Below, in pieces: positions 2,790 through 34,959 of a stretch of 64,000 nt of DNA (position 1 is the first letter of the stretch; every line of letters begins with the position of its first letter). The position numbers and the translations under genes were made by a program. Location of the stretch: assembly GCA_030655775.1 (NCBI GenBank), contig JAUSPI010000154.1:3839-67838 (forward strand). The letters are read 5' to 3'. The notes below the pieces were generated by a model. It searched no databases and was not told where the DNA came from. It saw nothing but the letters and a program-made list of their open reading frames with translations. The DNA is from Syntrophales bacterium (GTDB lineage Bacteria; Desulfobacterota; Syntrophia; Syntrophales; JADFWA01).

Positions 2790-3301
2790 TCTTCACCTCC
2801 ATAATATTTTAATCCCATTTCAAAACCTTTTAAGTTCATTTCAAGGCGGTCCGGCTTAGACAACTTTCTAATGGTTGTTTCCATCACTTCCTCATCACAA
2901 AAGAGGCTGCCTTCTTTCACCGTATATCCTAAAAGGATAAGATTCATGATGAGAAGTGATCCCAGCTCCTTTGCCATCCCGGTCGCATCAATGCTGTAAT
3001 ACTCTCCGGAGATGTCGGTATTTACAAATGACTTGCCTCCGGGCATTATGAAACTCCTGTAGATATCAAAGCTTGAACCGTCAAGAAATAATCCCACATC
3101 GCCCTGACCCATGCGGATCAAAGGACTTCTGAAAGACCCAACCTTAATATGGGAGACAACTGTTCCCCCTCTCATGGCCATGCCGTGCGTCTCCGAAGTC
3201 AGGACATCCATATTTTTTTCCACGGCCGCCTGTGCAAGAATCCTTGTCAGAAAGAGCACTCCCTGACCGCCGGTGCCGCTTATTATTATCTGTTGTTTCA
3301 T
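2786..3301 (-). CDS. iorB: indolepyruvate:ferredoxin oxidoreductase beta subunit
   Basis: 171 aa. N-terminal IIISGTGGQGVLF motif of the gamma-like OFOR domain. 4-nt overlap with iorA. Confidence 0.85.
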   Translation of the reverse strand: MKQQIIISGTGGQGVLFLTRILAQAAVEKNMDVLTSETHGMAMRGGTVVSHIKVGSFRSPLIRMGQGDVGLFLDGSSFDIYRSFIMPGGKSFVNTDISGEYYSIDATGMAKELGSLLIMNLILLGYTVKEGSLFCDEEVMETTIRKLSKPDRLEMNLKGFEMGLKYYGGEE

Positions 3302-5148
3302 TTATTGTCTCCTTCTTCCGCGACTATTGCCCCCGCAGGACACACGTGCTTACACACACCACACCCGATACAGATATTCTGATCGATTGAGAACCGCTTC
3401 CCCTCTGAATCACAAATAAGGGCCGGACACTCAAAGTTTTTCAGACAATACTCGCAGCCTGTACAATCTTCCGTTATTTTCATGGAATATACAGATTGTT
3501 TCTTTGCCGTCTCTCTGTTCAGGATGCACGGGTGTTTGGATATAATCACAGCAACGCCTCCATCCTCACCGCGGCAGTATCCATCGGCTTTCTTGAGATG
3601 GGAAGTAAACTTCTCAAAGTCATAAGGATCGCATTCTTTGAGAAATCTGACACCGCAGGCCCTCACCAGATCATGGATACGCACAGGCGTTCCTTTTGTC
3701 CCATCGGCCATAATTCCGACTTCAGGTGTCGGTTGATTACCGGTCATTGCTGTGGTGGAATTGTCCAGAATGACCAGGATAAATCGTGCTTTCTGAAATA
3801 CGGCATTGATAAGACCGGGAATGCCCGCATGGAAGAAGGTGGAATCACCTATGGTCACAACAATAGCGGGAACTTCTCCGCCATCCCGGGCGTACGCGTG
3901 GTAAAAACCCGCCCCCTGGCTTATGCATGCACCCATACAGTGACAGGTATCTACGGCACCAAGATTCATGCCGAGCGTATAACAACCTATATCGCTGGGG
4001 AAAATTCCCTTGGGAAACGTTTTTTTGATCGCGTAAAATGCCGCCCGGTGAGGACACCCCGGACATAGAGTCGGTCTCTTTCCTTTTATCTGCGCTGGAG
4101 AACCGCCTGTTTCCAGAGGTATACTCAGAAATTTCTTCAACACATCCTGAATGATATCCGGCGTCAACTCCCCCTGGCCAGGAATTAGCTTTGAATTTCT
4201 TCCATAAATCCCCGTATTCGTCAGTTGCATCTCTATTGTGGGATAGGTCTCCTCAATGACGAGTATTTTTCCGTATTCGGAACTTATTTTTTGAATGAAA
4301 CTCCTGTTTAAGGGATACGGCATGGTAACCTGGAAAAGGTCTATTTTCCCCAGAAAGCCCATATCTTCCAGGAGATCGCAGGTATGTGCGAAGGCTGCAC
4401 CGGAAGATATGATGCAGTGTTTGTCCAGCGATCCATCACCGGCAATGAGTAACGGCGAAAAAGCTTCTTCATCCGATATGTCTTCAATTTTTTCATTTAA
4501 GAGGCGATGGAGCTCATATAGAAATTGCGGTGTCGCAACCCAGCGTCCCGGATTTTTCTCGAAACTAACTTTCCTCTCCAATTTTTCAGGGGTGAAACAG
4601 GGGACATTCTGTCTGGCATGGCATATACGGGTAGTAGGGCGGATCATTACGGGAAGTTCATATTTTTCAGACAGCTCAAAGGCCTTTTTGACCATCTCTT
4701 TTGCCTCTCCGGGACTGGCAGGATCAAGGACGGGTATCTTGGCGAAGCGCGCAAAAAAGCGGCTGTCCTGCTCCGTCTGGGAGCTGTGAGGGCCTGGATC
4801 ATCAGCCACAATAACAACAAAACCCCCTTTAATTCCAATGTAAGCGGAACGCATAAAGGGATCGGATGCCACATTTAAACCGACCTGCTTCATGGCTACG
4901 GCAGATCTCTTACCGGTATAGCTGTTTGCCAACGCCACCTCATAAGCTACCTTCTCATTGACCGACCATTCTATGTGCATCCCGGTTTCTGTCTCACTGG
5001 AAAAATTGATGACTGATGCGAGAATCTCGGAGGCCGGCGTACCCGGGTAAGAAGCGGCGAGTGAGCATCCGGCTTCGACCAACCCCCTGCCGATCGCTTC
5101 ATTACCCATGAGTATTCTCTGCTCTGTTCGATCCGTGTTTTGACCCAT
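3298..5148 (-). CDS. iorA: indolepyruvate:ferredoxin oxidoreductase alpha subunit
   Basis: N-terminal MGNEAIGRGLVEAGC..SYPGTPASEI, TPP motif region GDSTFFHAG, and two C-terminal CxxCxxCxxxCP ferredoxin motifs. Start set to ATG 5148 (GAGGA 6 nt upstream); the track start at 5154 is TTG. Confidence 0.9.
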   Translation of the reverse strand: MGQNTDRTEQRILMGNEAIGRGLVEAGCSLAASYPGTPASEILASVINFSSETETGMHIEWSVNEKVAYEVALANSYTGKRSAVAMKQVGLNVASDPFMRSAYIGIKGGFVVIVADDPGPHSSQTEQDSRFFARFAKIPVLDPASPGEAKEMVKKAFELSEKYELPVMIRPTTRICHARQNVPCFTPEKLERKVSFEKNPGRWVATPQFLYELHRLLNEKIEDISDEEAFSPLLIAGDGSLDKHCIISSGAAFAHTCDLLEDMGFLGKIDLFQVTMPYPLNRSFIQKISSEYGKILVIEETYPTIEMQLTNTGIYGRNSKLIPGQGELTPDIIQDVLKKFLSIPLETGGSPAQIKGKRPTLCPGCPHRAAFYAIKKTFPKGIFPSDIGCYTLGMNLGAVDTCHCMGACISQGAGFYHAYARDGGEVPAIVVTIGDSTFFHAGIPGLINAVFQKARFILVILDNSTTAMTGNQPTPEVGIMADGTKGTPVRIHDLVRACGVRFLKECDPYDFEKFTSHLKKADGYCRGEDGGVAVIISKHPCILNRETAKKQSVYSMKITEDCTGCEYCLKNFECPALICDSEGKRFSIDQNICIGCGVCKHVCPAGAIVAEEGDNK

Positions 5149-5170
5149 GCTCAATCCTCATTTTCGCCAC

Positions 5171-5210
5171 AAAAAAAAGCCGTGGACATCGAAGGTTGTC
5201 CACGGCTTTT
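5171..5210 (-). terminator. intrinsic terminator/attenuator hairpin immediately upstream of iorA
   Basis: 14-bp stem AAAAGCCGTGGACA/TGTCCACGGCTTTT (5175-5188/5197-5210) with an 8-nt loop. It is followed on the minus strand by T8 and lies about 25 nt before the iorA RBS. Confidence 0.6.
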
Positions 5211-5228
5211 CATGTACGCTCTGTCTAT

Positions 5229-5312
5229 TTAAAATTCTCGCGGCCGGCGAACAAACCTCCCCCTTATATATATCCACTGCCACCACCAGAATTTTAAACT
5301 ATTATTTGCCAT
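5229..5312 (-). CDS. candidate Trp-rich leader peptide (27 aa) of the iorAB-dctPQM operon
   Basis: My translation gives MANNSLKFWWWQWIYIRGRFVRRPREF, with three consecutive TGG codons. It lies between a promoter-like site and the terminator. No convincing SD precedes the ATG. Confidence 0.4.
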   Translation of the reverse strand: MANNSLKFWWWQWIYIRGRFVRRPREF

Positions 5313-22432: not shown

Positions 22433-23038
22433 ATGACACAAAACGAAGATATCAAATCGGGAGCCGTAAAGGGATTTAAAATTGGCGGCAAAGTAAGAGA
22501 ACTCAGGCAAAAAAGACATTACACCATGAAGGACCTGTCTATAAAAACCGATCTGTCAAAAACTCTTTTATCTGAAATAGAAAATGATGAGGTTGTTCCA
22601 CCCGTGGCAACTCTGCTCAAGCTGGCCAAAGCTCTTGGTGTAGGAATGACTTTTTTCTTTGAGGACGTGGAAATCAGTGAAAAAATTTCTGTTACCCGTC
22701 CTGGTGAGCGGATACAGCTCAAACGCAGACCGCACCATCATGAAGGGGAAGTCGATTACGTTTACGAAATCCTTGAAACGAAAAAACCTGACAAGCGTAT
22801 GTTACCCTTGCTGGTAGAGTTTCAGCCCATGGATAGAAGTGACATGATTTTTACGAACCACGAGGGAGAAGAATTCTTATATCTCATCGAAGGAACACTT
22901 GAATTTCGCACCGATGATCGAATGGAGGTACTCCAGCCGGGCGATTCCCTCTATTTTGAATCGGATATAAACCACAGCTTTCGTGCTCTGGATGAAAAAC
23001 AGGCAAGGGCTGTTGTTGTGGTCTGGAGTAAAACATAA
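22433..23038 (+). CDS. XRE-family HTH transcriptional regulator with C-terminal cupin domain
   Basis: HTH block LRQKRHYTMKDLSIKTDLSKTLLSEIEN. Cupin block GEEFLYLIEGTLEF...GDSLYFESDINHSF. Confidence 0.8.
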   Translation: MTQNEDIKSGAVKGFKIGGKVRELRQKRHYTMKDLSIKTDLSKTLLSEIENDEVVPPVATLLKLAKALGVGMTFFFEDVEISEKISVTRPGERIQLKRRPHHHEGEVDYVYEILETKKPDKRMLPLLVEFQPMDRSDMIFTNHEGEEFLYLIEGTLEFRTDDRMEVLQPGDSLYFESDINHSFRALDEKQARAVVVVWSKT

Positions 23039-23054
23039 AAAGGAACTGATAATT

Positions 23055-23618
23055 ATGCTCGAAATCCGTTTTCATGGACGTGGTGGACAGGGAACCGTTG
23101 TAGCCACAATCCTGCTGGCCAAGGCCTTTTTTGAGGCAGGCTATCAAGTCCAAAGCTTCCCTTTTTTTGGAATAGAAAGAAGGGGGGCTCCGGTCGAGGC
23201 ATATTTAAGACTGAACAAAAAAGATATTTTAATAAGGTCGAATGTTTACAATCCCGATCACGTCGTTGTTCAGGACCGAACTCTTATCCAGAGCATTGAT
23301 TTTACAAGAGGACTTCAGCCAGGAGGATGGATCCTGATCAACAGTCCGGCTCCCCCTGCTAATTTGACCCCCTTTGCGGGTTTTCGGTTGGCTTTCGTCG
23401 ATGCCAGCCATATTGCAAGAAATCATAAACTGGGAACCCGTACCTCTCCTATCGTTAACACATCGATGATTGGCGCTTTTGCCAGCATTTTAGACATGCC
23501 ACCGATGGAAACTGTCGTTTCCGCCATCAGAGAAGAAATTACGATTGAGGCCGAACAAAACATCCAGGCAGCGGAAGATGCATACAGGGAAGTCCGAATT
23601 CTCGGAATGATTGAGTAA
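23055..23618 (+). CDS. 2-oxoacid:ferredoxin oxidoreductase gamma subunit
   Basis: Starts MLEIRFHGRGGQGTVVATILLA. ATG 23055 chosen over the upstream track start. Confidence 0.85.
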   Translation: MLEIRFHGRGGQGTVVATILLAKAFFEAGYQVQSFPFFGIERRGAPVEAYLRLNKKDILIRSNVYNPDHVVVQDRTLIQSIDFTRGLQPGGWILINSPAPPANLTPFAGFRLAFVDASHIARNHKLGTRTSPIVNTSMIGAFASILDMPPMETVVSAIREEITIEAEQNIQAAEDAYREVRILGMIE

Positions 23619-23629
23619 GGATCAGAAAA

Positions 23630-25423
23630 GTGACAGAAAAGAAGGAAATTATTGAAGCAATTCCATTGTTAGTACCACACTCCTACCTAACTACGGAAAG
23701 CAATAAGACGGGCTCGTGGCGCTTTCTAAAGCCCCGTTATGAAGAAAAGACTTCTCCATGCAGCACTGCCTGTCCTGCCGGTGAGGACATCGGGCAAATT
23801 GAAATGCTGACAGCCCGGGGTTTATTCAAGGAGGCCTGGGAAACCATACTCAGAGAAAACCCCTTTCCCGGCGTCTGTGGACGTGTCTGCTATCATCCCT
23901 GTGAAAAAATATGCAATCGAGAAGAATTTGATAAAGCTATTGCCATTCATAGTATCGAGCGTTTTCTCGCCGATACTGCCATTCGGAACGATTTAAAACC
24001 CCTTCTGGAACGTAATCCTGCCAGGAAGCAGAAAATAGCGGTAATAGGTGCCGGTCCCAGCGGCCTTGCGGCGGCCTATTTCTTGACCCTCCTCGGTTAT
24101 ACCTGCGATGTCTTCGAGGCTATGCCTGAACCCGGTGGAATTCTCCGGTGGGGAATACCTCCTTACCGCCTTCCCCTTTCTGTTCTTTAAAACGAAATTG
24201 CCCTGATTGAAGATCATGGCGTCCGGATACATACCGGGAAGCACATTTCACGGCACTTTCTGGAAGAGGCCCGGAATAATTACAATGCCATCTTTCTGGG
24301 TTGCGGACATTCCCGTACGGCCCGGTTGAACATCCCGGGAGAAGATACTGAGGGTGTTGAGGATGGGTTCAAATTTCTGCTAAGTATCCGTCAGAATAAA
24401 AACCCTTCATCCAATGGATCGATAGCTGTTATTGGAGGCGGCAACACAGCTATTGATGTAGCCCGGAGCATCGTGCGACTTGGCGGAAAGGCTCTTATAA
24501 TATACAGACGCAGGCGTCAGGATATGCCTGCCTTCGAACAGGATGTGCAGATGGCACTTGAAGAAGGAGTTGAGATTAAAGAACTTCTTACACCCGCAAA
24601 GATCATATATGATAATGAAGAGCTTGTTTTGACTTTACGGCAGATGAAAGTTGTTGGTGAAGATATTCAGGGAAGAGCTTCTGTTGAACCCGACGGTAAA
24701 AACCCTGAAGAAATCAGGGTTAAACGAATTTTCAAGGCTATTGGTAAAGGGATAGCCGAACCCTGGCATAGTCCCCCAGAAGAAGGGGAAGGAATTTTGA
24801 GGATGAACAACTCTGTTCTGGCATACCGGCATCAATGTCCCACTCTCGTGTTTGGGGGCGACCTGACAAATGAGACAAAGAGTGTCGTCCATGCTGTGGC
24901 TTCCGGCAAGGAGGCAGCTATAGCTCTTGATATATTCTTTAGGGAAGGATTTGATGCCATCAGGCCGACGCTAAAGACCTGTATGGTGGGAAATGGCGCT
25001 TCCCCTCTCTCTATGGAAGTTTACATGGGGGGACCTCGCCGTTTAAGAAGCCCCCATATTGTCACTTATGAAGAAATTAATACCGACTACTTTCAGCTCA
25101 CCGGCAAAGTCTCTCAACCACGTCTTTTAATAGAAGAACGCCTCCGGACATTTGAAGAAGTAGACCTCAAAATTTCGGCGCATCTGGCCACCAGAGAGGC
25201 AGGACGCTGCTTTAACTGCGGTCTCTGTAGTCAGTGTGAGAACTGCTTTGTGTTCTGTCCGGATTTATCAGTAATACGTGATAACAGTTCCCAGGGACGT
25301 CATATCAATTATGATTATTGTAAGGGGTGCGGTGTCTGTGTGGTGGAATGCCCCCGCAACGCCATGGTACTCGAGGAGGAAAGTTATGAAGAAAGTCCTG
25401 GAGGGAAGTCAGGCAGTAGCTGA
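23630..25423 (+). pseudogene. GltD/SudA-like NAD(P)H-flavin oxidoreductase fused to a PorD-like 2x[4Fe-4S] domain, interrupted by one in-frame TAA (24188-24190)
   Basis: ORFs 23630-24190 and 24326-25423 are in the same frame. The 45 codons between them continue the family pattern (NEIALIEDHGVRIHTGK...YNAIFLGCG...IPGED). Motifs: CGRVCYHPCE, IAVIGAGPSGLAAAYFL, AVIGGGNTAIDVA, and C-terminal CFNCGLCSQCENCFVFCP...CKGCGVCVVECP. Confidence 0.7.
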
Positions 25424-26564
25424 AGCGGTTCGCCTGGCAAAAGTCAGCGTTATTTCTGCTTATCCTATCACTCCGCAAACCCATATCGTCGAGTTCCTTT
25501 CAGAGTATTGTTCAGATGGCAGATTGGGCGCACGTTTTTTGCGTGTGGAGAGTGAACATTCTGCTCTGGCTGCTCTGATTGGAGCAGCGAGCAGCGGGGT
25601 GAGGACATTTACCGCCACTTCCTCACAGGGGCTGGCCCTGATGCACGAACTCCTCCACTGGACATCGGGTGCAAGGCTTCCGGTTGTAATGGTCGAAGTA
25701 AATCGGGCACTTGCTCCCGGCTGGAATATCTGGACCGACCAGACCGACAGCCTGGCACAACGGGACACGGGCTGGATACAGCTCTATTGTGAAAACAGTC
25801 AGGAAACTCTGGATACCACTCTTCAGGCCTTCCGCCTGGCGGAGATGGTTAATCTGCCGGTCATGGTAGTTTTAGATGCGTTTTATCTCTCACACACTTA
25901 TGAACCGGTTGATGTACCGGAACAGGAACTGGTCGACTGCTTCCTCCCTCCGTACGACCCAAAATTTCAGGTTGACACAAAAGATCCGCGTGCGTTTGGT
26001 TCATTAGTTCTGCCGAATGCTTACATGGAAATGCGCCATAATATTGCAATGGCGATGGAGGAAGTTCTGTCTATATTTCCAGAAATCGAGGAAGATTTTG
26101 CCGGAATATTTGGGCGTCGTTATGGGTCAGTAGAACCGATTGCCTGTGATGATGCGGAAATCATTTTGGTAACGTCCGGAACGGTCACGAGTACGAGCCG
26201 TCAGGTAATTCAAGGCTTGCGTGCAAAGGGAGAAAAAGTCGGGCTCCTGAAAGTAAAACTTTTCCGTCCCTTTCCCTCGGAGATGTTTCGCCGGATACTC
26301 AGACCGGCAAAAAAAGTCGCCGTGATTGACCGCAATTTCTCATTCGGGGCAAGTGGTATATTTGCCCAGGAATTGCGAGCCGCTCTTTGCAACCTTCCCG
26401 GCCATCCTCCGGTTTTCGGTTATATTGCGGGAATCGGCGGACGTGACGTGACAACGGACATATTAGAGAACATATACTGGCAAACCAAAAAGAATGAGGT
26501 TCCGGAAAAAGAAAGTATATGGATGGGACTTCAGGAGGTGGATCATGCAACTGAAAGTTCCTGA
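25386..26564 (+). CDS. 2-oxoacid:ferredoxin oxidoreductase alpha subunit
   Basis: MKKVLEGSQAVAEAVRLAKVSVISAYPITPQT is a typical PorA/VorA N-terminus. GAGGAGG RBS. Overlaps the upstream gene. Confidence 0.9.
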   Translation: MKKVLEGSQAVAEAVRLAKVSVISAYPITPQTHIVEFLSEYCSDGRLGARFLRVESEHSALAALIGAASSGVRTFTATSSQGLALMHELLHWTSGARLPVVMVEVNRALAPGWNIWTDQTDSLAQRDTGWIQLYCENSQETLDTTLQAFRLAEMVNLPVMVVLDAFYLSHTYEPVDVPEQELVDCFLPPYDPKFQVDTKDPRAFGSLVLPNAYMEMRHNIAMAMEEVLSIFPEIEEDFAGIFGRRYGSVEPIACDDAEIILVTSGTVTSTSRQVIQGLRAKGEKVGLLKVKLFRPFPSEMFRRILRPAKKVAVIDRNFSFGASGIFAQELRAALCNLPGHPPVFGYIAGIGGRDVTTDILENIYWQTKKNEVPEKESIWMGLQEVDHATESS

Positions 26565-27426
26565 ACGTGAGTACATGTACCCGGGACATGTGGCCTGTCC
26601 CGGATGCGGGGCCGCAATTGCCATGAGATTGTTCATGAAGGTGATGGGTGAAAAGACCATAATTGTCCTTCCTGCCTGTTGTTGGTCCATTATAGCGGGC
26701 GCCTATCCTCAGTCTACATTGCAGGTTCCGATAATCCATAGTGCCTTTGAAACCGGAGGCGCCGTGGCCAGTGGTGTGCGTGCGGCATTGGATATTAAGG
26801 GAGATACCGAAACCACCGTCGTTACATGGGCCGGCGATGGAGGAACTTTTGATATCGGCTTTCAGGCACTCAGCGGCGCCGTTGAGCGTAATGAAGATTT
26901 TATCTATGTATGCTATGACAATGAAGCCTATATGAATACCGGCATTCAGCGCAGTTCTTCTACCCCTTACGGTGCGTGGACCACCACAACACCGGGACAG
27001 GAATGGAAAAAGATGCGGAAAAAGAATATTGTAGAGGCTCTGGTAGCCCATCGCATTCCTTATGCTGCCACGGCTAATATTGCCTTCCCGGAAGATATGA
27101 TTCGAAAGGTTCAAAAAGCCAAAGAAATAAAGGGAGCGCGCTTTCTCCATATTTTTGCCAGTTGCCCTACCGGCTGGCGTATTCCATCTGAAATATCCGT
27201 CAAGATTGCCCGAATGGCTGTCCAGACCAATATTTTTCCCCTTTATGAAGTCGAAGGCGGTGTAAAATACACGATAAACTACACTCCCAAGGAGTATCCG
27301 GTAAGAGAGTATTTCAAACTCCAGGGACGATTCCAGCATCTCACTGACAATGATTTAGCGCAGATTCAGGAAATGGTCAACGAGGACTGGGAACTCCTGC
27401 TCCGTAAGGCGGGTGAACTGTCTTAA
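26545..27426 (+). CDS. 2-oxoacid:ferredoxin oxidoreductase beta (TPP-binding) subunit
   Basis: GHVACPGCGAAIA and GDGGTFDIGFQALSG...NEAYMNTG TPP motifs. ATG 26545 follows AGGAGG. Confidence 0.9.
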   Translation: MQLKVPEREYMYPGHVACPGCGAAIAMRLFMKVMGEKTIIVLPACCWSIIAGAYPQSTLQVPIIHSAFETGGAVASGVRAALDIKGDTETTVVTWAGDGGTFDIGFQALSGAVERNEDFIYVCYDNEAYMNTGIQRSSSTPYGAWTTTTPGQEWKKMRKKNIVEALVAHRIPYAATANIAFPEDMIRKVQKAKEIKGARFLHIFASCPTGWRIPSEISVKIARMAVQTNIFPLYEVEGGVKYTINYTPKEYPVREYFKLQGRFQHLTDNDLAQIQEMVNEDWELLLRKAGELS

Positions 27427-32612: not shown

Positions 32613-32655
32613 CTAAAAATAAAAAGGCCATGGGCTTTGCCGCCCATGGCCTTTT
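32613..32655 (-). terminator. intrinsic terminator/attenuator immediately upstream of leuA
   Basis: Minus strand GGCCATGGGC, 6-nt loop, GCCCATGGCC, followed by TTTTTATTTTT. Confidence 0.65.
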
Positions 32656-32678
32656 AGTACTGTCTTGTTTTTATTAGT

Positions 32679-32792
32679 TCATCCTCTTATACAAACGGCG
32701 GGCGGCGGGTATAAGACACCTGTAAGGCTCAACAAGCACAAAAGCAGAAGGCCGTTTAAGTTAGATAGGTCTCTCTTCACACCACACATCAT
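32679..32792 (-). CDS. candidate Leu-rich leader peptide (37 aa) of leuA
   Basis: My translation gives MMCGVKRDLSNLNGLLLLCLLSLTGVLYPPPAVCIRG. 10 of 37 residues are Leu, four of them consecutive. Confidence 0.45.
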   Translation of the reverse strand: MMCGVKRDLSNLNGLLLLCLLSLTGVLYPPPAVCIRG

Positions 32793-32825
32793 CTTATAAA
32801 AATCCCCCGACATAAAAGTCTCAGC

Positions 32826-32863: not shown

Positions 32864-34438
32864 TTACTTTTTTCCCTTACTCAATTTATATTGTATGCTG
32901 TCCACAAGGGCATGCCAGCTCGCCTCAATAATGTTTGAGGAGACCCCGATTGTGTTCCAGATTTCATCTTCATCCCTCGACTCCACCAGAACCCTTACTT
33001 TTGCCGCCGTTCCATCGGTTCCTTCCAGGATCCTCACCTTGAAATCCACCAGGTGCATCTTGTCAATTTCAGGATAAAATTTTCTTAACGCTTTCCTCAG
33101 GGCACTATCAAGGGCATTTACGGGACCATTCCCCTCTGCGGCTGTTATCTCTTCCTTTTCTCCGACCGATATCTTAATCATTGCCTGGGATTTGGATGAG
33201 CTTTCTTTTGTTTTTTCGTCGATGACACGGAAGGACTCCAGGACAAAAGGTTCCTTAAACTCACCCGTCACTTTTTTCATCAGTAGAGCAAGTGATCCTT
33301 CAGCAGCTTCAAACTGGTATCCCTGATCTTCCATGTTCTTTATCTCCTGAACAATTTTATTGCTATTGGAGACATCTTCTCCTAAAGAGATATTCAGCTC
33401 TCTCGATTTGTATTCTACATTGCTCCTTCCGGAGAGGTCTGAAATTAATACCCTCCGGTGGTTTCCCACGAGTTCAGGTTCAATATGTTCATAGGCTACA
33501 GGATTTTTTGAAATGGCGCTTACATGAATACCGCCTTTATGAGCGAATGCGCTTTTACCAACAAAAGGACTTGAATTAAGAGGGGGAATATTCGCTACAT
33601 CACTTACATAACGTGAGAGATTCGTAAGCTGTCTGATCGACGTCTCGGGCAGACACCTCTTATTCATTTTTAACTGGAGGTTACTGATTATAGAAATTAA
33701 GTCGGCATTTCCACACCTTTCTCCATAACCGTTTATCGTTCCCTGGACCATTCTTACTCCTGCCTCAACAGCCGACAGGGAATTGGCCACCGCAAGGTCG
33801 CAATCATTATGTACATGAATGCCTAAGAGGTGAGGAGGGATGGACGGGACAATTTCACTTATTATTTTAACCAATTCTCCATTAAGGGTACCTCCATTGG
33901 TATCACAGAGGACAATTATATCGGCACCGGCAGAGAGAGCCGTTTGAACGGTCTTGAGGGTATATTCAGAGTTATTTTTATATCCATCAAAGAAATGCTC
34001 GGCATCGTAGATTACTTCTTTTCCTTTCGATTTCAGATATTCAATGGTTTCTTGTATCATTAAAAGATTTTCCTTTAACGATACCCCGAGAATCTCAGTT
34101 GCGTGAAGATCCCAGCTTTTTCCAACAATTGTGACAGCCAGTGTTTCTGCATGAAGCAGGGCTTTCAGGTTCGGGCAATCCTCAGGAGAAGAATTGACCT
34201 TCCTGGTACTTCCAAAAGCCGTAAGGCGGGCATTTTTAAATTCCACATCCCGTGCAAGCTGAAAAAAGCGTATATCTTTCGGATTTGACCCCGGCCATCC
34301 ACCTTCGATATAATGAAAGCCCATATCATCCAGTCTACAAGCGATCCGCAATTTATCCTTTGCGGAAAAGTGGATGTTTTCTCCCTGCGCTCCGTCTCTC
34401 AAGGTTGTATCATAAATCAGCACATCCCATTTTTTCAT
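32864..34438 (-). CDS. cimA: (R)-citramalate synthase
   Basis: 524 aa LeuA-family enzyme with IYDTTLRDGAQGENI, the N-terminus typical of CimA-type enzymes. Placed ahead of leuACDB. Confidence 0.8.
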   Translation of the reverse strand: MKKWDVLIYDTTLRDGAQGENIHFSAKDKLRIACRLDDMGFHYIEGGWPGSNPKDIRFFQLARDVEFKNARLTAFGSTRKVNSSPEDCPNLKALLHAETLAVTIVGKSWDLHATEILGVSLKENLLMIQETIEYLKSKGKEVIYDAEHFFDGYKNNSEYTLKTVQTALSAGADIIVLCDTNGGTLNGELVKIISEIVPSIPPHLLGIHVHNDCDLAVANSLSAVEAGVRMVQGTINGYGERCGNADLISIISNLQLKMNKRCLPETSIRQLTNLSRYVSDVANIPPLNSSPFVGKSAFAHKGGIHVSAISKNPVAYEHIEPELVGNHRRVLISDLSGRSNVEYKSRELNISLGEDVSNSNKIVQEIKNMEDQGYQFEAAEGSLALLMKKVTGEFKEPFVLESFRVIDEKTKESSSKSQAMIKISVGEKEEITAAEGNGPVNALDSALRKALRKFYPEIDKMHLVDFKVRILEGTDGTAAKVRVLVESRDEDEIWNTIGVSSNIIEASWHALVDSIQYKLSKGKK

Positions 34439-34456
34439 TAGTATTAACCTCCCTCA

Positions 34457-34499
34457 AACTAAAAAATCCGTTACCAGTGAACCTGATAACGGATTTTTA
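34457..34499 (-). terminator. intrinsic terminator/attenuator immediately upstream of cimA
   Basis: Minus strand 12-bp stem ATCCGTTATCAG/CTGGTAACGGAT (one G-U pair), 5-nt loop, then TTTTTT. The GAGGGAGG RBS follows. Confidence 0.65.
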
Positions 34500-34528
34500 T
34501 GCTAAACAGTTAAAACACTACACCATTA

Positions 34529-34591
34529 TCAGGTCTCCCATGCATTGGGCCTAATTATCCCGCATATAATGGCAATAGTATTTTTAAACAT
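34529..34591 (-). CDS. candidate Ile-rich leader peptide (20 aa) of cimA
   Basis: My translation gives MFKNTIAIICGIIRPNAWET. Five Ile fall within eight residues. Confidence 0.45.
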   Translation of the reverse strand: MFKNTIAIICGIIRPNAWET

Positions 34592-34716
34592 GTTGATCTT
34601 TTTATCCTCTGCTTCTAAATATATTTCACAATATAATTTCATTTTCCGTTTGTCAAACAAAAAATAGGTTTCGTGTTATAATATATGGATAATTCTCTAT
34701 CAAAGAGGTGTGCATT

Positions 34717-34959
34717 ATGAAAGAATTTACTGTCAGCAGGACTAAAGCCTTAAAGGAAAATCTTTATTGTGGCAACTGCGGCACGTGGATATATTGCCCC
34801 GAGATGAACTCCAGGATGGAAAACGAAAAGGGTGAAATAACAGAACAGATTGGGGAAGGCTGTCTACATCAGAATGATAAAGGGGATTTTCTGGAATGCC
34901 CTGATTGTAAGAGCCATTATTATCTGAGTGTAACTACTCAGGTATCCAGTAGTCAGTAG
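34717..34959 (+). CDS. small zinc-ribbon protein (80 aa), uncertain
   Basis: Two CxxC pairs (CGNCG...CPDCK). AAAGAGG RBS. TGtTATAAT extended -10 at 34674-34682. The last ~12 codons lie inside the arm of repeat element D. Confidence 0.4.
   Translation: MKEFTVSRTKALKENLYCGNCGTWIYCPEMNSRMENEKGEITEQIGEGCLHQNDKGDFLECPDCKSHYYLSVTTQVSSSQ

Follow-up and report, generated by a model that had tools for sequence, protein, structure and literature searches.

A predicted isoleucine-responsive leader-peptide attenuator upstream of the citramalate synthase gene in Syntrophales and related bacteria

The cimA locus

The 64,000-nucleotide (nt) stretch of contig JAUSPI010000154.1 from a Syntrophales bacterium that is analyzed here (the window) carries on its minus strand cimA, the gene for citramalate synthase, preceded by a leader region with an isoleucine-rich open reading frame (ORF) and a terminator-like hairpin. 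An earlier note, made from the sequence alone, had proposed this leader as a candidate attenuator responding to isoleucine (Ile). In the threonine-independent synthesis of 2-oxobutanoate and Ile, citramalate synthase catalyzes the first committed step. As to what the gene encodes, the earlier note was right: the product scores 734.7 bits against TIGR00977, the citramalate synthase equivalog model (cutoff 450), stays far under the cutoff on all 2-isopropylmalate synthase models, and contains the Pfam domains HMGL-like, HCS_D2 and LeuA_dimer. The genes that follow cimA are leuA (NF002086, 795.6 bits), leuC, leuD and leuB, in this order. The features of the locus, all on the minus strand, are as follows.

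34656..34651, minus strand: -35 hexamer TTGACA of the cimA promoter (promoter scan, read from the sequence)
34633..34628, minus strand: -10 hexamer TATTGT (promoter scan)
34610..34605, minus strand: Shine-Dalgarno (SD)-like AGAGGA, 5' of the leader ATG (read from the sequence)
34591..34529, minus strand: leader ORF MFKNTIAIICGIIRPNAWET, 20 codons plus TGA, the stop at 34531..34529 (read from the sequence)
34576..34553, minus strand: putative regulatory cluster of Ile codons, namely codons 6, 8, 9, 12 and 13 (ATT, ATT, ATA, ATA and ATT)
34584..34559, minus strand: segment 1, AAAAUACUAUUGCCAUUAUAUGCGGG, 5' arm of the 1:2 (anti-antiterminator) hairpin, overlapping Ile codons 6-9 (minimum free energy, MFE, structure)
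34535..34512, minus strand: segment 2, made up of GACCUGAUAAUGG (34535..34523, antiterminator 5' arm, which holds the leader stop) and the partner of segment 1, CCUGAUAAUGGUGUAGUGUUUU (34533..34512)
34498..34480, minus strand: segment 3, the terminator 5' arm (34498..34483) and the antiterminator 3' arm CCGUUAUCAGGUU (34492..34480)
34477..34461, minus strand: segment 4, the terminator 3' arm CUGGUAACGGAU and the U-tract
34455..34448, minus strand: ribosome-binding site (RBS) GAGGGAGG of cimA, 9 nt before the ATG at 34438
34438..32864, minus strand: cimA, citramalate synthase, 524 aa (TIGR00977, Pfam), the putatively regulated gene

The TTGACA hexamer, already picked out by the earlier note, pairs with TATTGT at a spacing of 17 (10 of 12 matches in the promoter scan), and the placement of the two hexamers suggests that transcription starts near 34621. 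The 20-codon leader ORF lies between this promoter and cimA and can be read directly from the minus strand just as described before, with five Ile in eight residues and with neither leucine (Leu) nor valine (Val). An Ile density of at least five in eight residues is reached by 3 of the 1373 small ORFs of the window (10-80 codons, six frames). Counting from the first nucleotide of the leader ORF, the last Ile codon occupies nt 37-39 and the stop codon nt 61-63, with segment 2 starting from nt 57; the stop lies inside CCTGATAA (34533..34526), which is complementary to TTATCAGG in the 5' arm of the terminator, as had been claimed. The motif ATCCGTTATCAGG was not found as a dispersed repeat: there is one exact copy in the window, and weaker matches are at the chance level.

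Three alternative pairings in the leader RNA

The terminator core consists of ATCCGTTATCAG (34494..34483), the loop GTTCA (34482..34478) and CTGGTAACGGAT (34477..34466), and the 12-bp stem, which includes one U.G wobble, and the 5-nt loop are those given in the earlier note. The run of six T and the end at 34457 given there require correction: the first T belongs to the last stem pair (A-U), leaving five free T followed by AGTTT, the T-run ends at 34461, and the helix is predicted to extend to 16 bp through flanking A/U pairs (34498..34461). The RBS begins 5 nt after the end of the T-run, in agreement with the earlier estimate. A scan for consensus terminators reported no site in this region, apparently because the A/U extension of the stem consumes the T-tail that the scan requires.

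The antiterminator pairing postulated previously is also present, with 13 bp and not 8, between GACCUGAUAAUGG (34535..34523) and CCGUUAUCAGGUU (34492..34480). Furthermore, the MFE structure contains a hairpin that was absent from the earlier description, one of the 22-bp class, in which the stretch of Ile codons (34584..34559) pairs with 34533..34512. Taken one at a time, the pairings have predicted energies of -12.1 (1:2), -19.0 (2:3) and -19.8 (3:4) kcal/mol, and the 1:2 duplex stands at z = -3.3 relative to shuffled sequences. The 186-nt leader as a whole folds to -51.8 kcal/mol as against -34.7 +/- 3.7 kcal/mol for dinucleotide shuffles (z = -4.6; none of the 200 shuffles was as good), the MFE structure being the combination of 1:2 with the terminator (3:4). 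Folding predictions thus indicate that the window holds the full four-segment design of a classical attenuator.

Folding under a ribosome mask

The logic of stalling and stopping that the earlier note had set out was examined by folding a transcript cut at the terminator loop, before segment 4, with a ribosome represented by a 29-nt mask. When the mask covers any one of the five Ile codons, the 11 core bases of segment 3 are all paired to segment 2; when it covers the leader stop codon, none of the 11 are. The predictions therefore bear out the proposed behavior, the antiterminator forming when any Ile codon is covered and not when the stop is. The same holds for most of the relatives described below: in 15 of the 17 members folded in this manner, the antiterminator forms at most Ile stalls and is lost with the mask on the stop codon, and L084 and L087 depart from this pattern. 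The energies of the predicted states are -26.0 kcal/mol for 1:2 alone, -28.5 to -32.7 for 2:3, and -47.1 for 1:2 together with 3:4.

Related leaders upstream of cimA

CimA searches of GTDB genomes and JGI metagenomes yielded 160 loci (designated by L numbers where they have to be told apart). The Ile-codon run, on whose conservation the earlier note had made its proposal depend, is conserved: in 18 of these loci, an Ile-rich leader ORF together with a terminator/antiterminator pair is found directly upstream of cimA. All 18 belong to a CimA clade with 61-70% identity to the query and come from Syntrophales, Syntrophaceae, Desulfatiglandales, Desulfobacteraceae or Thermodesulfobacteriota metagenome-assembled genomes (MAGs), or from unbinned metagenome contigs. 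Below about 61% identity, the cimA genes are mostly inside operons, behind lysC-, ilvN- or ilvC-like genes, and show no such leader. An exact copy of the CimA sequence was found on a single Logan contig, from run SRR13727525. The nearest relatives are Syntrophales/Syntrophaceae MAGs, with L001 sharing 70% identity in CimA, 74% in LeuA and 75% in LeuC; because the top CimA identity in the databases searched is 70-71%, fine-scale comparison has to proceed without a close relative. A similarly placed TTGACA can be seen by eye 5' of the leader in L001, L004, L005, L006 and L007.

The leaders come in two types. Short, Ile-only leaders, with 5-10 Ile each, are present in the window and in L001 (MSARALITIIISGLLIIGGGTCVT), L083 (MGLNAITIIIGIIIRGGHSPA), L084 (MNTRNTIIPIIAIEGIIIGPAYRGLSGG), L085 (MKSSIGIIIPIIIDIIGIRPGGVGG) and, in partial form, L002 (...AIAIIAGIIIGPTYSGLDGG). 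The long leaders, which encode 32-42 aa, are exemplified by L005 (MRNLVQNIIVIISATGILLPLLLLVVVRLKGPGLIMT), L007 (MNFIVNNIIVIICATGVLVSLLLSLLVVRPTIPDLIMT) and L004 (MMGFISNIIIIINAAGILVSLLLALLVLKPKEPVLIMI). The leaders of L003-L007, L010, L086-L090, L092 and L098 are multivalent, with an Ile run followed by a Leu run and with or without a Val run, and their Leu-codon stretch forms a hairpin of its own, GCAACAGGG...CCUUGUUGC, nested in helix 1:2. Wherever downstream DNA was recovered, the multivalent leaders precede the gene order cimA-leuA-leuC; the short Ile-only leaders accompany cimA-leuC (L083, L085) or, in the window, cimA and a separate Leu attenuator. The order cimA-leuC is found in L082 too, the upstream region of which is lost at the contig end.

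The spacers between cimA and leuA in L003, L004, L005, L006, L007, L088, L089, L090 and L098 contain a conserved GC-rich hairpin, GCCGCAGA...UCUGCGGCG (for example, L005:4548-4760 and L098:3078-3231). It is located inside a small ORF whose C-terminus carries a conserved motif, ..AAD..G(S/N)LRR(V/G)L.. (as in MKQSERNEGSYAAAFRTVGTLRRMLME). This ORF of the long-type relatives does not represent a Leu-run leader; the window lacks it and has a classical Leu leader instead.

Conservation of the pairings

In an alignment of the window with the 18 relatives (A1, 19 sequences), the terminator 5' arm has CCGUU and CAGG invariant in all 19, the two bases between them varying in L001, L010 and L098 only, and segment 2 is kept as CCUGAUAAUG or variants thereof. 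The 16 terminator pairs are formed in 95.4% of the alignment cells, four of them with compensatory changes on both sides; no shuffle out of 500 was as good, and sliding the partner reduced the paired fraction to 31-52%. The 13 antiterminator pairs are formed in 89.0% of the cells, compared to 17-49% with a slid partner, and a double change from A-U to G-C is seen in L010 and L098.

Since segment 1 shifts register among the sequences, the 1:2 pairing was scored not on alignment columns but by the duplex energy of each sequence with shuffle controls; it reaches significance in the majority, z ranging from -2.5 to -4.5 in 10 of the 17 members scored. Segments 1 and 2 also covary: GAUAAUG occurs with CAUUAUC, and GAUGAUG with CAUCAUC in L001 and L085. 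Segment 1 resembles segment 3 (AUUAUC and GUUAUC), and segment 2 resembles segment 4 (GAUAAU and GAUAAC). These resemblances suggest a chain of constraints, whereby segment 1 has to consist of Ile codons (AUU AUC), which would fix segment 2 (GAUAAU), hence segment 3 (GUUAUC) and, in turn, segment 4 (GAUAAC or GGUAAC); such a constraint, passed on through all four segments, might account for the highly conserved terminator.

The proposed mechanism

The sequence elements observed, the three alternative pairings predicted from them, the conservation of these pairings and the identification of the gene lead us to the interpretation that the leader is a ribosome-mediated (leader-peptide) transcription attenuator coupling cimA expression to the supply of charged tRNA-Ile, a prediction to which we assign a probability of about 0.85. 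We infer that the leader is translated, that its segments fold in a kinetic order and that cimA responds to Ile. The nascent RNA, starting at about 34621, would first fold into 1:2, the Ile-codon stretch pairing with CCUGAUAAUGGUGUAGUGUUUU. When Ile-tRNA is plentiful, the ribosome would reach the UGA inside segment 2 and cover this segment; after its release, 1:2 would form again, so that segment 3 would be free in either case to enter the 3:4 terminator, and RNA polymerase would halt 5 nt before the cimA RBS. When Ile-tRNA is scarce, a ribosome stalled at one of the five Ile codons would mask segment 1 and leave exposed segment 2, which starts 18 nt past the last of these codons. Segment 2 could then pair with segment 3 (13 bp) once the latter is transcribed, the terminator would be blocked, and transcription would proceed into cimA and possibly into the leuA leader. 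With no translation at all, 1:2 and 3:4 would form together, resulting in termination.

Several observations weigh against this interpretation. Full-length folds keep the terminator nearly always, even with segment 1 masked. Because the terminator is the most stable helix, such folds are uninformative, which is why they were replaced by folds cut before segment 4; by the same token, the attenuator model depends on co-transcriptional kinetics, and with the terminated state as the thermodynamic end point, antitermination has to rely on kinetics, just as in the trp system. In the truncated transcript without a ribosome, MFE favors 2:3 over 1:2 by 2.5-6.7 kcal/mol, so that the model needs a kinetically trapped 1:2, failing which a high basal read-through would be possible. 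In L003, L004 and L090, the 1:2 duplex does not outperform shuffles (z of about 0), and the covariation statistics of the antiterminator are weak, 27 of 500 shuffles reaching the observed score, because the sequences are so conserved that there is little variation. The SD-like AGAGGA is separated from the leader ATG by 13 nt, a long spacing that the earlier note had conceded, and the SDs of several relatives are weak; in L001, GAGAGGA is located 5 nt from the ATG. Finally, leuCDB, which this pathway requires for Ile and which Leu synthesis needs as well, lie behind a second, putatively Leu-specific attenuator, an arrangement difficult to square with control of the pathway by Ile alone. The relatives show other arrangements, with a combined Ile+Leu(+Val) leader before cimA-leuA-leuC, or cimA-leuC under an Ile-only leader (L083, L085).

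Alternative explanations

The alternative that survives best, albeit as an unlikely one, is an RNA-only switch, in which the AUUAUC / GAUAAUG / GUUAUC / GAUAAC helices would answer to a protein, a small ligand or a tRNA, the small ORF being incidental. The sequence of the terminator arm is unusually conserved, considering the CimA identity of only 61-70% at these loci; SDs are weak or distant; and pairing by itself could explain the conservation of AUUAUC. Nevertheless, conservation of sequence in all four segments is explained as well if segment 1 is made of Ile codons, and a number of features of the ORF would be unaccounted for were it incidental. Every complete leader contains a start codon in frame, encodes Ile-Ile in the conserved stretch and includes more Ile codons beyond the part that pairs. 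Although the ORFs vary from 20 to 42 codons in length, 15 of the 17 complete leaders keep their stop codon at 4 or 15 nt past the start of segment 2 (the exceptions are L085, with the stop 3 nt before the start of segment 2, and L086, with the stop 7 nt after it). The closest pair of leaders, those of L007 and L088, differ in six codons, five of the differences being synonymous and one non-synonymous. Moreover, nothing like a conserved aptamer domain is seen, both sequence and length being variable outside the four segments, and no Rfam family, the T-box included, matches.

The use of Ile codons in the leaders points in the same direction. ATT, ATC and ATA occur 46, 42 and 37 times, respectively, and interchange freely, and the peptide is poorly conserved outside the Ile/Leu/Val runs, as is to be expected if codon identity, not the peptide, is under selection. 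The synonymous bias, the free variation of the Ile codons and the lack of peptide conservation, all read from the sequences, thus appear to fit selection on codon identity better than selection on the peptide product or on RNA pairing alone.

Still less probable is that the hairpin is a constitutive or leaky terminator, for instance an insulator separating divergent genes or a terminator working in both directions, which happens to lie beside an Ile-rich ORF and involves no amino acid sensing. With an A-run on one side and a T-run on the other, the hairpin could act as a terminator in either orientation. However, its place on the sense strand is past a promoter and ahead of the gene, and, because the upstream neighbor is divergent (plus strand), a minus-strand terminator has no upstream gene to end; furthermore, 18 relatives retain the ORF together with the antiterminator and the 1:2 hairpin, and an ORF this rich in Ile is the rarity in the window that the count given above attests.

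Least probable of all is that the ORF encodes a small hydrophobic peptide acting in trans, a membrane micro-protein, with attenuation secondary or absent (a reading that is in itself compatible with attenuation): the 32-42 aa peptides of the long-type relatives do look like a transmembrane helix, and 3 of the 9 cimA leader peptides tested give weak, sub-threshold matches to transmembrane families of Pfam, but the window peptide has 20 aa with a hydrophobic stretch of about 8 residues, sequence outside the Ile/Leu/Val runs is poorly conserved with no match to a peptide family, and the known ilv leader peptides are equally hydrophobic.

Relation to known attenuators

The leader-peptide attenuator that we favor for cimA has well-known counterparts. 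The trp leader (trpL) of Escherichia coli and Salmonella is the archetype of ribosome-mediated attenuation. The cimA leader resembles it in having four segments with the alternatives 1:2, 2:3 and 3:4, regulatory codons in segment 1, a stop placed such that a terminating ribosome occludes segment 2, and an intrinsic terminator before the first structural gene; unlike trpL, with its two Trp codons, it has five Ile codons, precedes another gene, occurs in a Syntrophales-like lineage, and shows no sequence similarity or Rfam match. With ilvL (ilvGMEDA) and ivbL (ilvBN), the cimA leader would share leader-peptide attenuation of branched-chain amino acid biosynthesis, and its long-type relatives are multivalent like ilvL, with Ile, Leu and Val runs (e.g. 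MRNLVQNIIVIISATGILLPLLLLVVVRLKGPGLIMT); unlike ilvL and ivbL, the window leader is Ile-only and would control citramalate synthase, not the threonine deaminase/acetohydroxyacid synthase route, and the peptides match no Pfam or NCBIfam family.

Outside the gamma-proteobacteria, predicted or demonstrated leader-peptide control of branched-chain amino acid genes is described for actinobacterial leuA and ilvB (Seliverstov et al., 2005; PMC1262725) and for the ilv-leu attenuator peptides of Firmicutes, namely Staphylococcus aureus (PMC5794164) and Listeria monocytogenes (PMC5864092). These systems differ from the cimA leader in genes, lineages and sequences, and none of them is on cimA. The Leu-specific T-box that precedes leuA in Geobacter and Pelobacter (PMC2700814, PMC2494555) represents, as the cimA leader would, terminator/antiterminator control of a gene for a LeuA-family synthase in former delta-proteobacteria through the reading of tRNA charging; unlike the cimA leader, the T-box binds uncharged tRNA directly, with no leader ORF.

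Searches of RNA families returned no candidate. Rfam 15, with its models of amino acid operon leaders and of the T-box, gave no match at gathering thresholds in the whole window, and a permissive scan of 34300..34900 (E <= 10) gave sub-threshold, terminator-driven chance matches only (e.g. RybB, 15.6 bits vs 40), so that a T-box or another known RNA family was rejected for the cimA leader, Rfam having no match in the window or locally above threshold. An Ile T-box expected before cimA in other lineages was likewise rejected, as Rfam found nothing in 18 Firmicute, Geobacter and other cimA loci with 3-kb flanks. Among the leader peptides compared with Pfam-A and NCBIfam, that of the window has no match at E <= 10, and no relative matches at the curated cutoff. 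The literature searched contained no cimA or citramalate leader peptide and no relevant delta-proteobacterial attenuator, an earlier mention being possible in broader surveys of classical attenuation. One such broad survey, by Lopatovskaya and coworkers in 2010, reportedly may cover delta-proteobacteria. On the whole, the cimA element is very likely an attenuator of the trpL/ilvL type in functional terms that belongs to an in effect uncatalogued sequence family: the mechanism is textbook, the gene and the lineage are not catalogued.

A more specific proposal, to which we give about even odds, is that of an uncatalogued cimA-specific attenuator family in Syntrophales, Desulfatiglandales and Desulfobacterales, in which the Ile codons AUU-AUC seed all four segments and which has been remodeled between a multivalent form (cimA-leuA-leuCD) and the split form of the window. 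In the split form, an Ile-only attenuator before cimA and a Leu-only one before leuA-leuCDB are found in one gene string.

Other predicted attenuators and neighboring genes

Two further leader units are present on the minus strand of the window.

32813..32614, minus strand: Leu-run leader unit before leuA, with the ORF M(SGDFYK)MMCGVKRDLSNLNGLLLLCLLSLTGVLYPPPAVCIRG from 32813 or 32792 to 32679
5312..5171, minus strand: Trp-codon leader unit, with the ORF MANNSLKFWWWQWIYIRGRFVRRPREF (WWWQW) at 5312..5229, upstream of 5154..3298

The Leu leader has seven Leu in nine residues (...NGLLLLCLLSL...) and a terminator, AAAAGGCCATGGGCGGCAAAGCCCATGGCCTTTTTATTTTT, with a predicted energy of -24 to -27 kcal/mol; a TTGACA is located just past the cimA stop, 5' of this leader. 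According to these predictions, leuA-leuCDB are behind both the Ile and the Leu attenuators. The WWWQW leader is followed by a terminator, AAAAGCCGTGGACAACCTTCGATGTCCACGGCTTTTTTTT (-20 kcal/mol), and precedes iorA-iorB, for indolepyruvate:ferredoxin oxidoreductase (IOR; TIGR03336, 662.5 bits), not a trp operon; paaK is just upstream. This arrangement suggests a putative Trp-responsive control of IOR, possibly in connection with reductive Trp synthesis or indoleacetate salvage. In the genome paper on Geobacter metallireducens, a conserved element 5' of iorAB-paaK is listed under 'tryptophan' (PMC2700814, Table 2).

The earlier note had invoked the Leu and Trp leaders as signs that attenuation is systematic in this genome. 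Both leaders are there with their terminators, and, given these units, systematic leader-peptide attenuation is a reasonable suggestion; what has to be amended is the operon that the Trp-codon leader precedes. Judging by these leaders, the indication is that the organism relies on leader-peptide attenuation rather than on T-boxes.

The divergent neighbor upstream of cimA is an 83-aa ORF (34708..34959, plus strand) with paired Cys motifs (CGNCG...CPDC) that give it a zinc-ribbon-like appearance; it has no NCBIfam match. A 2-oxoacid:ferredoxin oxidoreductase cluster (22983..27426, plus strand) adjoins the leu genes and comprises PorC-like, GltD-like NAD(P)-binding (with a PorD-like domain), PorA/VorA-like and VorB/PorB-like proteins. 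The GltD-like protein is apparently split into two ORFs (23630..24190 and 24326..25423), both of which match NF009410; this could reflect a frameshift, selenocysteine or a genuine split.

Implications

The catalogues tested (Rfam, Pfam and NCBIfam) and the literature searched hold no example of an attenuator on the citramalate route to Ile. If the cimA leader indeed functions as predicted here, it would provide independent regulatory support for the notion that Ile synthesis is the role of the TIGR00977-type CimA in these uncultured anaerobes, and would represent a small, portable switch, about 160 nt in length, that responds to Ile. Moreover, the 19 members would form a natural series, from multivalent (Ile+Leu+Val) to univalent (Ile-only), for the study of how attenuator specificity evolves, and the leader would become a regulatory signal for annotating cimA operons in Thermodesulfobacteriota MAGs.

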